This document shows, in pieces, positions 10,300 to 33,068 of a stretch of DNA of 64,000 nt. A program made the translations under genes and the position numbers. The notes below the pieces were generated by a model that was not told where the DNA came from, did no database searches, and saw only the letters and a program-made list of their open reading frames with translations. Position 1 is the stretch's first letter, and each line of letters begins with the position of its first letter. Source of the stretch: Mustelus asterias (Eukaryota); contig NW_027590418.1 in NCBI RefSeq assembly GCF_964213995.1, positions 248,001-312,000 on the forward strand. The letters are read 5' to 3'.

Positions 10300-10337
10300 G
10301 GTTTTTGTGCGGGGTTCGCTACATCTGTCCCAGTGTG
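10300..10337 (-). other. RSS of psiV4 (22-nt spacer)
   Basis: CACACTG - 22 nt - ACAAAAACC. Confidence 0.9.
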
Positions 10338-10558
10338 GGCTTCATGGCACAGAAATACACGGCGTTGTCGGACAGAACACCTCTGGCGATATTTAAAGGA
10401 ACAGTATTGTTTCCTTTGTGTAAAGCAGCCGAGAATCTATCTGAGAAATCCGGAGACTTATCGGTATTGCCCGAGCTATATATCATCATCAAATATCTCG
10501 GAGCTTGCCCGGGATACTGGATGTACCAGAACATAGTTTCAGAAGTAGCTGTTGAGTA
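10338..10558 (-). pseudogene. psiV4: 5'-truncated copy of V10 (no leader, FR1 or first Cys)
   Basis: YSTATSETMFWYIQ..DNAVYFCAMKP nearly identical to V10; homology ends at a deletion junction at 10557-10558. Confidence 0.92.
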
Positions 10559-10781
10559 CCGGATGCTCTGCCGCATGCGCACTCTCCTCCCCCGCACTAT
10601 CAATGCTGAAGCTCCCTCACTGATTCACTTTGTGATCACAAGTCCCAGAGACCCGGCTCTCACCGCCACTCTGTGACTGGTTTGGGGCTCGGTTTGATAT
10701 CCAATAGCATTGCTTTCCCAGGAGCTTCTCTCAGCCTGGGATCTGCTGACAGCTGTTTCACACAAGCCGATAGGATCCAAC

Positions 10782-11284
10782 ATGTTCCTGAGTTTCACTT
10801 TGGTGATTATTTTCCTGGATTTCTTACTGTTCCCTCAGTGTAAGTGTGGTCACTATTTCTGACAGCAATATTTCACACCTCAGCAATGTTATGTTCTGTT
10901 AAATTGTACTCAGCTTTATTGTATTATCTCGAATTGTGAATACAATGGTACTTTATTGTGCTACATTATAGTACGATATGTTCTTACTGCAAATGTACAT
11001 ATTCTTCCCAGATGCCGCTGGCAGTGAAGAGCTATCACAGTCTCCGGAGTCAGTGGTTGTTACCGAGGGAGCCACTGCATCGTTGAACTGTTCAACCACA
11101 GTAACTGGACAGCTCCTTCAATGGTACAGACAAAATCCAGACAGAACCGTGCAGCACCTGGTGAGCGGTACCAGCGATCAGGGCAGGATCACGGCTCAGT
11201 ACAGTTTCTCAGAGAAACGCAGCGTTCTGAATGTTAGTGAAGCTCGGCTGACAGACACCGCCACCTATTTCTGTGCGATGGAGG
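10782..11284 (+). CDS. TRAV: V5: TCR alpha/delta-type V segment, family D (leader 10782-10839, V exon 11012-11284)
   Basis: Leader MFLSFTLVIIFLDFLLFPQ; V exon EELSQSP..LNCS..WYRQ..DTATYFCAME. Confidence 0.92.
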
Positions 11285-11323
11285 CACAGTCTAGCAAAGA
11301 CCGTACAGGGCCGTACAAAAACC
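11285..11323 (+). other. 23-RSS of V5
   Basis: CACAGTC - 23 nt - ACAAAAACC. Confidence 0.93.
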
Positions 11324-18213: not shown

Positions 18214-18253
18214 GGTTTTTGTACGGGATTCGCTATATCTCTGCAGCAGTGTG
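18214..18253 (-). other. RSS of V7 (24-nt spacer)
   Basis: CACACTG - 24 nt - ACAAAAACC. Confidence 0.88.
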
Positions 18254-19854: not shown

Positions 19855-20500
19855 ACTGACGTCACTCGCAGTTCACAGTGACGTCACATGGGCTACAGGG
19901 TGACGTCACACATTCTGACGCCACACATATCCGCATTCCGACGTCACAATACACGATGTTCTGACGTCTGACGTTGGGCGTCACGGTGCCACAGTGGTTA
20001 GCACAGCTGCCTCACAGCGCCCCCGGTTCGATTCCAGCCTCGGGTCACTGTCTGTCTGGAGTTTGGATGTTCTCCCCGTGTCTGCGTGGGTTCCCTCCGG
20101 GTGCTCCGGTTTCCTCCCACAGTCCCAAGATGTGCGGGTTAGGTTGACTGGCCGTGCTGAATTGCTCCCTCGTGTCAGGGGGATTCGCGGGGTAAAGATG
20201 TGAGGTTACGGGGAGAGGGTCTGGGTGGGGCTGTGGTCGGTGCGGGTTCAATGGGCCGAATGGTCTCTTTCTGCACTGTAGGCATTCTATGATTCTATGA
20301 GGTTCCAATGCCGCGGATGCTCTGACGTCAGAATGCCGGATGTTCTGACGTCAGAATGCCGGATGTTCTGACGTCAGAATGCCGGATGTTCTGACGTCAG
20401 AATGCCGGATGTTCTGACGTCAGAATGCCGGGTGTTCTGACGTCAGAATGCCGGATGTTCTGACGTCACAATGCCGGATGTTCTGACGTCACAATACCGG
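19855..20500. promoter_or_regulatory. CRE-rich region with a 23-bp tandem CRE/ETS array (8 copies, 20321-20500), split by a SINE
   Basis: 11 perfect TGACGTCA; unit CTGACGTCAGAATGCCGGATGTT. Confidence 0.8.
19977..20300 (+). mobile_element. HE1-like V-SINE
   Basis: tRNA head, V-domain core and tail ending ATTCTATGATTCTATG. Confidence 0.9.
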
Positions 20501-20719
20501 ATGCTCTGCCGCATGCGCACTCTCCTCCCCCGCACTATCAATGCTGAAGCTCCCTCACTGATTCACTTTGTGATCACAAGTCCCAGCGACCCGGCTCCCA
20601 CCGCCACTCTGTGACTGGTTTGGGGCTCGGTTTGATATCCAATAGCATTGCTTTCCCAGGAGCTTCTCTCAGCCTGGGATCTGCTGACAGCTGTTTCACA
20701 CAAGCCGATAGGATCCAAC

Positions 20720-21222
20720 ATGTTTCTGAACTTCACTTTGGTGATTATTTTCCTGGATTTCTTACTGTTCCCTCAGTGTAAGTGTGGTCACTATTTCTGA
20801 CAGCAATATTTCACACCTCAGCAATGTTATGTTCTGTTAAATTGTACTCAGCTTTATTGTGTCATCTCGAATTGTGAATACAATGGTACTTTATTGTGCT
20901 ACATTATAGTACGATATGTTCTTACTGCAAATGTACATATTCTTCCCAGGTGCCGCTGGCAGTGAAGAGCTATCACAGTCTCCGGAGTCAGTGGTTGTTA
21001 CCGAGGGAGCCACTGCATCGTTGAACTGTTCAGCTGCAGTAACTGGACAGGTCCTTCATTGGTACAGACAAAATCCAGACAGAACCGTGCAGCACCTGGT
21101 GAGCGGTACCAGCGATCAGGGCAGGATCACGGCTCAGTACAGTTTCTCAGAGAACCACAGCGTTCTGAATGTTAGTGAAGCTCGGCTGACAGACACCGCC
21201 ACCTATTTCTGTGCGATGCAGG
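20720..21222 (+). CDS. TRAV: V8: TCR alpha/delta-type V segment, family D (leader 20720-20777, V exon 20950-21222)
   Basis: Paralog of V5; V exon ends DTATYFCAMQ. Confidence 0.92.
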
Positions 21223-21261
21223 CACAGTGTAGCAAAGACCGTACAGGGCCGTACAAAAACC
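21223..21261 (+). other. 23-RSS of V8
   Basis: Perfect CACAGTG - 23 nt - ACAAAAACC. Confidence 0.96.
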
Positions 21262-24156
21262 TGCCGCGATCATCCAGAAATTGGAGCCTGTGCAGAGAGC
21301 TGGACTTTTAATCACTCTCTCCCTTGGATACGCGCCACAGTCACCCGATCAGTGAGACCTGTTGCCGATTTGGGTTTACTCTTTAAAATCAAAAAAGAAC
21401 GGATAAAATACATTTAAATTGGGTTATTTTCTGTGGAAATGTCATCCGGGCAGCGCATGTTCCATGGTGCTTCCAAATTGGAATAATCGTGGTATTCCGT
21501 GAGTCAATATTAAAAGGATCCTTGTCTATTTCCTGTGATAAATCCCATTCCAGTCTGTGACACATTCTAAGTTCGGCTGCAGGGACGAGTGACAGACATT
21601 GAGTTTCCCAGACTCCATCGGAGTTGAAAGCTCTGGAAGACCAGTCAGGAGTGCTAAGGGACAGTCACTCCATATCTGAAAGCTTTCTGTGCCTATCTAG
21701 ACAGAGCAGTATTCCGGGTAAGTTATGGGATATTTAATGAAGTGGTAGAGGGCCAGACATTGAGAGAGGTCCCAAGGTCTCTCAGACCGGTTCGCTGTTC
21801 ATTTGAACGAACAAAGGCAGCAATGAACCTGTTCGATAAATAAACGACCAAGTCATCCCATTTTCACAGAAAAGTGGACAGGGATCGATAAATGTTATTC
21901 ATTGCATTGATATTTGTTACCATCTGGAGTAGAGCGCCGCAAACTATAAAGGAAGAGCATTCAATAGTAAATTTCAAAAAGGCATTGTCAGACCTTGAGA
22001 ACGGAAAATAACACGTGGAATGGGGGGTGAGAAGAGCAATTGGGAAAGGTCTTTCATAGAGCCACAGGGAGAGTCAATTGTTTCTGATCCATTCGCGCCC
22101 GTCCGTCACTATTTTTTCTCAGTCACTTGAGCAGTGAGCAGATGCAGGTTGTCACAGACTGCTGCAGGTTCAGCTGTCGCTGTTTCCTCTCCATCACCTG
22201 CGACTGCCGCTGAGAACTCCGCACTTCCATCAGCTTTGAGTCTGCGGTGACCCCGGCCACAGCTTCCGGTTGCTGCTATTCATTCCAACACCATTGTGCT
22301 TTTCGAGACATTGCTGCCGCTGGTCGATTTCTGTCATTGGTTAGATCAGAAGTTCAGTGCTTCAGTCTATTCATTAGTGTAGCAAGTAAGCTTATATTAA
22401 CACTGCAGTGAAGTTACTGTGGAAATCCCCTCGTCGCCACACTCCGGCGCCTGTTCGGGTACACTGAGGGAGAGTTTAGCATGGCTGATTAGCGACTGAT
22501 TCAGGAAGTGGTGCGTGGTACTGTCGGATAATACAGCCTTTTTAACGAGGTGAGTCTGTGTTGAAATTATTATTGAGCAATCCAAGTATTCATAACTACA
22601 GCAGACTTTGACACATCCAATGTTTGGTTCTAGGAATTGCTGGCGCAATCTCAGTTAACGGCCCTGGAAGATGATATAACAGTAATTTTTGGCTACACGA
22701 TCTCTACATCTGAGAGCTTTCATTACCGCTGCTCTGAAGTAGATTTGGAGGTTAACTGCATGCATTGCGCCATAAAGATATGTCTCATCATTTCGCAATC
22801 TGTTCCTCTGGTGACCTAGACAAGATGTAGAGATTCCGGCGTTGGACTGGGGTAAACAAAGTAAGAAGTCTCACAACACCAGGTTAAAGTCCAACAGGTT
22901 TATTTGGTAGCAAAAACCACGAGCTTTCGGAGCGCTGCCCCTTCGTCAGGTGAGTGGGAGTTCTGATCACAAACAGTGCACAAAGACACAAACTCAATTT
23001 ACATGAATAATGATTGGAATGTGAGTCTTTACAGCTAATCAAGTCTTAAAGGTACAGACAATGTGAGTGGAGGGAGCATTAAGCACAGGTTAAACAGATG
23101 TGTATTGTCTCCAGACAGGACAGCTAGTGAGATTTTGCACAGGTTTTGCCACACTCTCTGACAGAGATTTTGCATCGAGAGACAGAGGGAGAGTGTGTGC
23201 GTGTGTCCCTGTGTGTGAGAGAGTTCAAAGTAACCTTCAAATACCTGGACTCCGCAATCTCTTTATTCCTGGATCAGTGTGGCAACCCTGTCTGACAGAG
23301 AATTAAACATTCCCACTGTTTTCTGTGTTAATAAAGTTTCTAACATCACCACAGCGCGACACTGGAAATGAGCTTCCTTGGGTTAGAAAGCGCTTTCGGA
23401 CATCTGAAGTCTGTAAAAGGCATCAATAAAAATCTTTCTTTCTGTTTTCGACTGAAATTTCTTTCTGGAGATTAAATTCATTGTCCTCTTGTTTCCACGG
23501 CCAGAAAAGTTTATTTTTAATTTCATTTTTAAAATTTAAATCCGTTTCTTTCCCGGATTGGGTTAATGAGTGGTCACCACCTCCTAGCATTTCCCGGATT
23601 CTGTCTCCAGTCGGTTCAGAGATTCTTTCCGCTCCAGAGGACACAGGCAGTCTGGCAGGAATAAGAATCCGGGAACTTACCGAGGAGACAGTGCAGTGCT
23701 CAGGGAACGCTGCACAGTCAGAGCTGCCAGCCTCTCGGTGACCTGTTCAATCGGGGGCACCGTGTTCCCTCTCAGCTGGAGGTGGTACATCACATGGTCA
23801 CACTTTCCAAGAAGAGCAGAGAAATGTCCTGTTTGATATCTGTTCACCAATCACAATGACTGAAACAGACAGAACACTACAATGTTACTGAATGAAATGT
23901 CACACTGAGTCCAAATTGGCTGCTGTGTTTTCTACAGTGACAGGGAAACACTTTGGGACATCAAACTGTACAAATAGTCAAATGTTCATTCTCTAAGTTG
24001 CCCTCATTGTTTTAGTTTGGTAATATATTTATAAATAATACATATATATATTAGAATTAAAAGTTTGAGATACCAGCACGATTTCAGGTTCCAGATCAGA
24101 CTCACTCTGATCACAATGTTTTCCTAATGCTCTGTTGTGTTGCGTGGGGCTCTGAC

Positions 24157-25570: not shown

Positions 25571-26552
25571 ACGATCTTCCCTCAATTTGTAACTTTGCCG
25601 CGTGTGAAATCCTCTTTCAGAGAGAAAGTATAGCTTGCCACCCCATTGGACTGCTGATCCAATCGGTGCCAAACAGGGAAAAGCAGCAAAGGTCAATATC
25701 TACAATAAAATCTCTAATAAAACAACACAGATGAGGCAGGTCAGAGTGAGAACAACACAGGAAAGCTGTGGGTGTGGCTGCCATAGGCAGTGTGGTGAGA
25801 GGTAGAATTTATCTGCAAGGAATTGAACTCAATAACACTATCGCATTGGAAATCATATAAATTTGCCTGTCTGTAGGAGCGGCAGCTGAATGTTCATTCC
25901 ATAGCGCGGACCAGCAGTCTCGCACCAGGAAGGTCAGGGTTAGTAAATGATCCAATACAAAGCGGAATCTTCATCAGTGATGGAGATGGACAGTGGGACC
26001 GAATAGCTGAGTAGCTGGATTGGAGAGGTTCTCAGTGTGCTTGTGAGGAAAATCACTACATTGTTAGGGCCAGGGGTGGGAATGAAGTAGCTGGTCTGAT
26101 TATTGTAACAGAGGAACACTGAGTTGCGAATTGTGTCAGAAAACATTTGACAGACATTCAAAATGAGAATGAACATTGATGGCAACTTGTTCTCAGTGAT
26201 TGTTTTAAATAGCACAATGACAACCTTGCGAAATGTATATGCCAATATAAGCTGTCCCTTAGGCAGCAAAATACTCTCATCATATAGACCCTTTGGTCAA
26301 AGAGACCTTGAAAAGGAGAGTGAAGATGGGGAAAGTGCTGCACAATAATTCACACAGGCAAGAAAATGTCATCAAAGGTTGAAGCGTGAGTTAAGGAACT
26401 GTAAATGTATTTTTAGTATAGTTGCAAGTTAAAAATTCAACTGTGGCTCAGCCGTTCGTGTTGAGTGTTGTGTTTTGTTTTGATATTTTGTTTATGACCC
26501 TGTGACTATCACTGTCGAGACAAAATAATTATTTCTGTTTATCAGTGTGGGA

Positions 26553-33028: not shown

Positions 33029-33068
33029 CACACTGCTGCAGAGACATAGCCAATGCCGTGCAAAAACC
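33029..33068 (+). other. RSS of V12 (24-nt spacer)
   Basis: CACACTG - 24 nt - GCAAAAACC. Confidence 0.85.

Follow-up and report, generated by a model that had tools for sequence, protein, structure and literature searches.

A CRE-cored minisatellite in the upstream promoter region of a family of shark TCR V segments

Upstream of V8, a TCR alpha/delta-type V segment of the shark Mustelus asterias, we find a minisatellite that carries a CRE in every unit. This array is real and specific to the V8 family, and it combines two known things, a CRE in TCR V promoters and a promoter VNTR. Judged from the sequence, this old CRE-cored repeat is probably the V8 family's own CREB/ATF-bound upstream promoter module, the eight units found at V8 being a recent and likely slippage-driven state. 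The window, here and below, is the whole stretch of DNA that was analysed (64,000 nucleotides), and positions are counted from its first letter.

Results

Twelve V segments in both orientations, with RSS spacers of 22-24 bp, lie within the window's first 33 kb, and the remainder beyond them is transposon and satellite DNA. J and C genes were not found in the 64-kb window, and genome-wide searches with the PF09291 profile and a strict J pattern, both of them weak, returned 0 matches. The field resembles the described elasmobranch TCR alpha/delta V field, in which shark V segments lie interspersed and in either orientation (PMC12227049). V8 possesses a leader, a GT-AG intron, both cysteines, the tryptophan and a 23-spacer RSS, and TCR alpha chains dominate its best single-domain PDB matches. 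A full-length homolog was not found, and the only close protein match is an unnamed fragment. The V8 family has a short CDR2 region, with 51 residues from Trp to the second Cys against 55-59 in its neighbours. As for the other segments, the RSS spacer is 24 bp long in V7 (18214-18253) and V12 (33029-33068) and 22 bp in V4 and V10, and the GYFC of V7 corresponds to VYFC in V12. A decayed (about 70%) V7/V12-type promoter region without a V exon lies 3' of V8, at 22097-22359. A second rearrangement junction is located at 26032, where the V8-V9 block abuts the V10 block; the V5-V6 copy runs into a LINE and V7.

Table 1. Features of the window around V8 and at the V4/V5 junction.
Feature	Position	Strand	Description
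V4/V5 junction (10557)	10337..11323	.	5'-truncated V4 exon (-) joined to V5 proximal promoter (+)
V7, V segment	18214..18906	-	ATG 18751; points away from V8
Distal, older degenerate units, 15-23 bp	19855..19975	+	three perfect CREs and three imperfect cores
High-copy SINE	19976..20297	+	inserted within one CRE unit; very high contig depth
Proximal 23-bp minisatellite, 8 full units	20314..20508	+	perfect CRE in every unit
V8 proximal promoter/5' leader region	20509..20719	+	CCAAT 20639-20643; kept in V5
V8, intact TCR alpha/delta-type V segment	20720..21261	+	leader 20720-20777, GT-AG intron
V8 V exon	20950-21222	+	
V8 consensus 23-RSS	21223-21261	+	

The proximal array was recovered by TRF (20314-20508) with a period of 23, 8.5 copies and 96% matches. 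Its CREs start at 20323, 20346, 20369, 20392, 20415, 20438, 20461 and 20484, and its units lie head to tail and exceed the 7 bp from which a tandem repeat is called a minisatellite. The window contains 12 occurrences of the CRE palindrome TGACGTCA, where 0.84 would be expected, and 0 of 100 shuffles reached 12; eight of these occurrences fall at 20323-20491 in 23-bp steps, and three at 19857, 19879 and 19901. Six of the proximal units are of the G type, five of them with the CRE inside the 14-bp palindrome, and CCGGATG is present in seven of the eight, with CCGGGTG in unit 5. TRF and the motif positions agree with the original prediction of eight 23-bp units that each contain a CRE, five of them within a 14-bp palindrome. 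Its further description of the locus was equally accurate: three more perfect CREs past the SINE, one CCGGATG-type site per unit with a single variant, an array ending 220 bp before the V8 ATG (20720), and V7 in the opposite orientation.

The SINE is flanked by a 7-bp target-site duplication (19969-19975 and 20298-20304), which has one mismatch in the V8 copy and is perfect in five copies, those of C91, C325, C108 and C71 among them. Once the SINE is excised, the distal CREs and the proximal array form a single run of 15-23-bp units, an older degenerate repeat; this continuity, like the recurrence of the array in paralogous promoters, had escaped the original prediction. Contigs of other organisms reach across the V gene and into the array's last units (X9 record 25; X20 record 8), and one of them joins the distal to the proximal CREs without the SINE (X9, joint 19865-20431). 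Immediately downstream of the array is what we take to be an NRF1-like motif (20509-20519, with two mismatches). The CpG o/e ratio rises to 0.88 at 20000-20499, compared to a window mean of 0.51; since these CpGs come from the repeat and the SINE, the peak was not taken as a CpG island. A reading of the array as an RNA family or miRNA was also set aside, the hairpin matches being at chance level and far below gathering scores. The low contig depth inside the array was left unused; contigs collapse repeats.

The 3.68-Gb genome was searched with the unit, allowing at most one mismatch, and with the reversed unit as a control. The unit gave 61 matches and the control 0, and all 61 were inside 28 close V8-family promoters (V5 excepted), which excludes a dispersed satellite or a transposon part. 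The original prediction had placed a CRE minisatellite in the promoter region of a TCR V and had named a common dispersed satellite as a case that would refute it; this case is absent. With the V8 promoter and exon as query (46 matches; 40 of 84 candidates scored, which makes the counts lower bounds), the V8 family comprises at least 29 close copies that are 91-100% identical, V8 and V5 included, and at least 11 distant ones (78-82%). All 38 loci outside the window were examined directly, and the last CRE stood at position -236 relative to the ATG wherever the promoter was free of indels. Some near-identical copies (C90/C106/C119, C89/C128 and C71/C108) may be uncollapsed haplotypes of one another.

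CRE pairs 20-25 bp apart number 187 in the genome, of which 101 lie in the 40 V8-family loci. Many of the remaining pairs come from a CRE minisatellite on C5 that is unrelated to the array (L088:5400-6968); its 22-bp unit is present in 71 copies with 58 perfect CREs, in SINE-rich DNA. No V match was found near it, so repeats with a CRE core do expand in places that have no V promoter. None of the window's other 11 V segments has a CRE palindrome in its 1.1 kb upstream (the anchors of V3 and V4 being approximate), so CREs are not generally required for shark V promoters.

Distant V8 subfamilies, whose intron and exon are 79-84% identical to those of V8, have 4-8 degenerate units and lack this SINE; at a divergence of about 20%, the degenerate units are CRE-bearing and 22-23 bp long. 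All ten distant paralogs with a readable promoter, from four lineages, contain one to four perfect CREs, and every readable V8-family promoter examined, V5 excepted, retains at least one. These comparisons indicate that the CRE repeat predates both the SINE insertion and the split of the approximately 20%-diverged subfamilies. One distant V8-family gene, L068 (C3978), was excluded from the unit counts, its promoter being replaced by a GC-rich satellite, and its upstream region is a long 14-bp GC-box-containing tandem repeat. L056, which has no V exon, was excluded from the tree.

Among the 28 close copies, proximal units number 2 (14 copies), 3 (6), 4 (3), 5 (2), 6 (1) or 8 (2). A count that varies between homologous copies is characteristic of a minisatellite, and here it ranges from 2 to 8 among paralogous or haplotypic ones. 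In an ML tree of 27 close copies, calculated with the array collapsed, two units are seen on the basal branches and two to eight in the youngest group of 13 copies, whose terminal branches (0-0.021) are poorly resolved. Counts also differ in cis, on C546 (2, 5, 3), C436 (3, 8) and C232 (3, 2), and the tandem 9.9-kb duplicates on C546, each a V7-array-V8-V9 unit, are 98-99% identical despite their different counts. The copy-number variation anticipated in the original prediction is thus borne out at the level of paralogs, including paralogs on one contig. Of the 34 units in excess of two per copy, 29 are of the palindromic type, which is twice as stable in folding (two such units reach -13.2 as against -6.3 kcal/mol); the whole array has z=-11. 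Since growth occurred mainly by the hairpin-prone palindromic unit, expansion is well explained by mutation alone, and the eight-unit state is likely to be recent and slippage-driven. All 14 copies with at least three units are intact genes. All seven broken copies have two units, which was disregarded as a signal, being confounded by phylogeny.

The conservation of core and spacer was compared within units of equal age, with the anchor dropped. The core matched the consensus at 0.86 and the spacer at 0.77 in 21 units from four distant lineages (Wilcoxon p=0.01), and at 0.88 and 0.76 in 33 units from six lineages (p=0.001); these units are related and not independent, and the wrap-around alignment loses inserted bases and may flatter or misplace spacers. 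The CpG was kept in 24 of 33 cores versus 15 of 33 spacers (p=0.04), and in 14/21 versus 10/21 in the distant set alone (p=0.35). Perfect CREs were found in 7 of the 21 distant units, with 4.2 expected. When the 28 close copies were all included, variation was alike in the core (16/56 sites) and the spacer (34/102 sites; p=0.59). In the 21 intact close copies, variable sites made up 5/64 in the core, compared to 21/118 in the spacer (p=0.08) and 61/329 in the SINE (p=0.04). Within the SINE, 21/36 CpG sites were variable as against 94/293 non-CpG sites, and the CpGs of the array had no excess variation (core 5/14, spacer 4/12), although these numbers are small. Taken together, the CRE core is kept moderately better than the spacer, a modest sign of constraint; self-repair of the palindrome could keep the core without selection and thus imitate it.

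V5 is alone among the 29 close copies listed in having no CRE. Its ORF is intact, and its RSS heptamer is CACAGTC, where V8 has CACAGTG. The V4/V5 junction shows a 2-bp microhomology. On C232 both ends are preserved, an intact V4-type gene being followed 9,942 bp further by a 3-unit array, and the copy nearest to V5 over 1.36 kb (C546, 99.2%) has five units. For these reasons the simplest reading is that V5 lost the whole CRE cluster through a deletion of about 9.9 kb, in agreement with the original prediction, and an origin by a tandem-duplication junction is disfavoured. An assembly error at this junction is possible. V5 and V8 had also been proposed as a clean control pair distinguishable by diagnostic SNPs, and this did not hold. 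The two differ at eight exon positions, mostly in CDR1, and among 22 intact copies V5 has 0 private sites and V8 has one in the exon and two upstream; from a copy on C232, V5 differs at a single exon position. Since the deletion removed all upstream DNA, the heptamer differs and there is no private site, V5 is a weak control. Shark TCR alpha undergoes hypermutation (PMC5931798), and the assignment of reads by a single site would therefore be blurred.

V7 has promoter motifs of its own, namely two CCAAT boxes (18836 and 18871), an ETS site (18891) and a GC box (18901), and V12, its paralog in the window, likewise has its own CCAAT, ETS and GC motifs. The nearest CRE is 1.1 kb from V7. In a bidirectional promoter the divergent starts are less than about 1 kb apart; the ATGs of V7 and V8 are separated by 1969 bp, and their pairing is not conserved. 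A V7-type gene lies head-to-head with 13 of the 28 arrays, at 1.4-1.5 kb, five arrays follow a same-strand V4/10-type gene, and ten are without a V within the 3.7 kb examined. A search for V7-type genes (40 of 214 candidates scored) gave at least 30 copies at 91-100% identity over gene and promoter, and among the 30 listed, 12 are head-to-head with an array and 18 are not. The array follows the V8 family; it would thus act on V8 and probably not as an element shared by V7 and V8.

The ETS part of the original prediction fared no better. GABPA and CREB1 cooperate only with precisely overlapping motifs (PMC4555227). The array resembles their ETS-CRE composite in having an ETS-like core directly 5' of the CRE, and differs from it in its GGAT core, in the lack of overlap and in spacing, with 10 nt in place of 7 nt from the ETS-like site to the start of the CRE. 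The composite motif had 0 matches in the window, and the site is not conserved in distant paralogs, CCGGA[AT] being absent from nine of ten distant promoters. Cooperation with ETS factors is unlikely to be the conserved logic of the array.

Discussion

If the array is the V8 family's own promoter module, as we think probable, its mode of action can be proposed by analogy. CREB1/ATF1-type dimers would bind the predicted CRE units when unmethylated, and the neighbouring V8-family gene would thereby undergo germline transcription and become accessible to RAG, in line with the action of V promoters in the mouse. The unit count would be altered by hairpin-assisted slippage, or by unequal exchange among the tandem 9.9-kb duplicates. 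A CRE motif occurs in mammalian TRBV promoters (PMC2685407), and V promoters determine accessibility in mouse Tcra/Tcrd (PMC2212846, PMC8679779). One may also speculate, with considerable doubt, that the CRE count acts as a repertoire rheostat that sets opening, rearrangement and mutation for each V copy, so that usage outpaces coding evolution.

It is rather unlikely, in our estimate, that the array is a neutral minisatellite which arose once in the family founder and was copied with the gene, its growth and repair driven by its own hairpins and the true promoter being the proximal 210 bp. Such an origin agrees with the strong self-complementarity of the array, with an expansion biased toward the palindromic unit and with the existence of an unrelated CRE minisatellite on C5. 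It also agrees with the insertions (SINE, LINE-like and others) tolerated within the array in several lineages, with the likeness of core and spacer across all close copies, and with V5, whose ORF is intact without the array and which retains the proximal 210 bp. What argues against neutrality is that old units keep the core, including its mutable CpG, better than the spacer, that at least one perfect CRE persists in every readable promoter except that of V5, and that the position of the array in the promoter is fixed. Were the neutral origin nevertheless correct, the array would be an ordinary minisatellite carried along by a duplicated gene.

CREB binding is blocked by CpG methylation, and long CpG-rich arrays beside a SINE might draw methylation or silencing, so that the array would lower or cap V usage. 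We consider this repressive or self-limiting role improbable. The greater variability of CpG over non-CpG sites in the SINE points to earlier methylation of the vicinity in the germline, and MORC3 can repress homotypic motif repeats in mammals (PMC13373173). Against this, the array CpGs themselves lack such an excess, small as the numbers are, the 14 copies with three or more units are all intact, and eight motifs are far below the up to 61 reported in the MORC3 paper (PMC13373173). A CRE/ETS bidirectional enhancer common to the head-to-head V7 and V8, as originally predicted, we judge very improbable. The 13 head-to-head arrays, the duplication of the pair as one 9.9-kb unit, the orientation-free nature of the CRE and the CCGGATG of seven units are in keeping with it. 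However, 15 of the 28 arrays have no V7-type partner, and 18 of the 30 V7-type genes listed have no array. The array instead keeps to -236 from the V8-family ATG, V7 has a CCAAT/ETS/GC promoter of its own, and the ETS-like site is both poorly conserved and 3 bp off the only cooperative GABPA/CREB1 configuration (PMC4555227).

The promoter module that we favour has partial counterparts in mammals. One is the CRE/decamer of TRBV promoters (PMC2685407), likewise a CRE-type palindrome before a TCR V leader that is present in only some V subgroups. An AGTGAxxTCA-type motif is found upstream of the V8 leader, and AGTGACGTCA itself occurs at 19877-19886. Unlike TRBV, the shark genes are alpha/delta-type V segments with up to 11 perfect CREs in tandem in place of one motif (PMC2685407), and these lie at -236 to -863 from the V8 ATG, farther than the single mammalian motif at about -80 to -120. 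The human TRIB3 promoter contains a 33-bp VNTR with a C/EBP-ATF site in one to five copies (PMC7425993), which the shark array resembles as a promoter minisatellite with a bZIP site per unit and few copies (2-8). The TRIB3 count is allelic and raises expression, whereas the shark count is known among paralogs, some of them in cis, and its expected output would be V(D)J accessibility (PMC7425993). Mouse Trav15-dv6 promoters similarly have a family-shared sequence and a proposed position-independent role in V accessibility, and a tandem CRE repeat is not described in the available parts of these accounts of Tcra/Tcrd promoters (PMC2212846, PMC8679779). Our literature search turned up no study of the promoters of shark TCR V genes or of CRE repeats in them; its coverage of subscription journals and older work was thin.

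The weight of the V promoter, relative to position or RSS, in V usage is a standing question of V(D)J recombination, usually approached with one mouse knock-in each. Here about 16 intact V copies, 97-99% identical, differ in the count of one predicted activator site and constitute a ready-made dose series. This series of paralogs, with 0, 2, 3, 4, 5, 6 and 8 units, is a better comparison than the V5/V8 pair. The link between CRE and TCR V promoters would extend to cartilaginous fish.

The TCR alpha/delta-type V field as a whole is strongly amplified, with at least 40 V8-family and at least 40 V7-family matches on more than 20 contigs, among them C232, C315, C386, C387, C391, C436, C546, C591 and C71. 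The V8-type copies on C71, a 20-Mb contig, are pseudogenes. The V8-family exons (window 20950-21222 and paralogs L031-L050) differ at 29 sites when 22 copies are compared. These sites concentrate in CDR1 and in the loop that precedes the second Cys, and two variants of the RSS heptamer are found in changing combination with them. Such mosaic exons suggest gene conversion. Five intact members of the V8 family (L046-L050), located on contigs of 1-3 Mb, all have the heptamer CACAATG and only two units.
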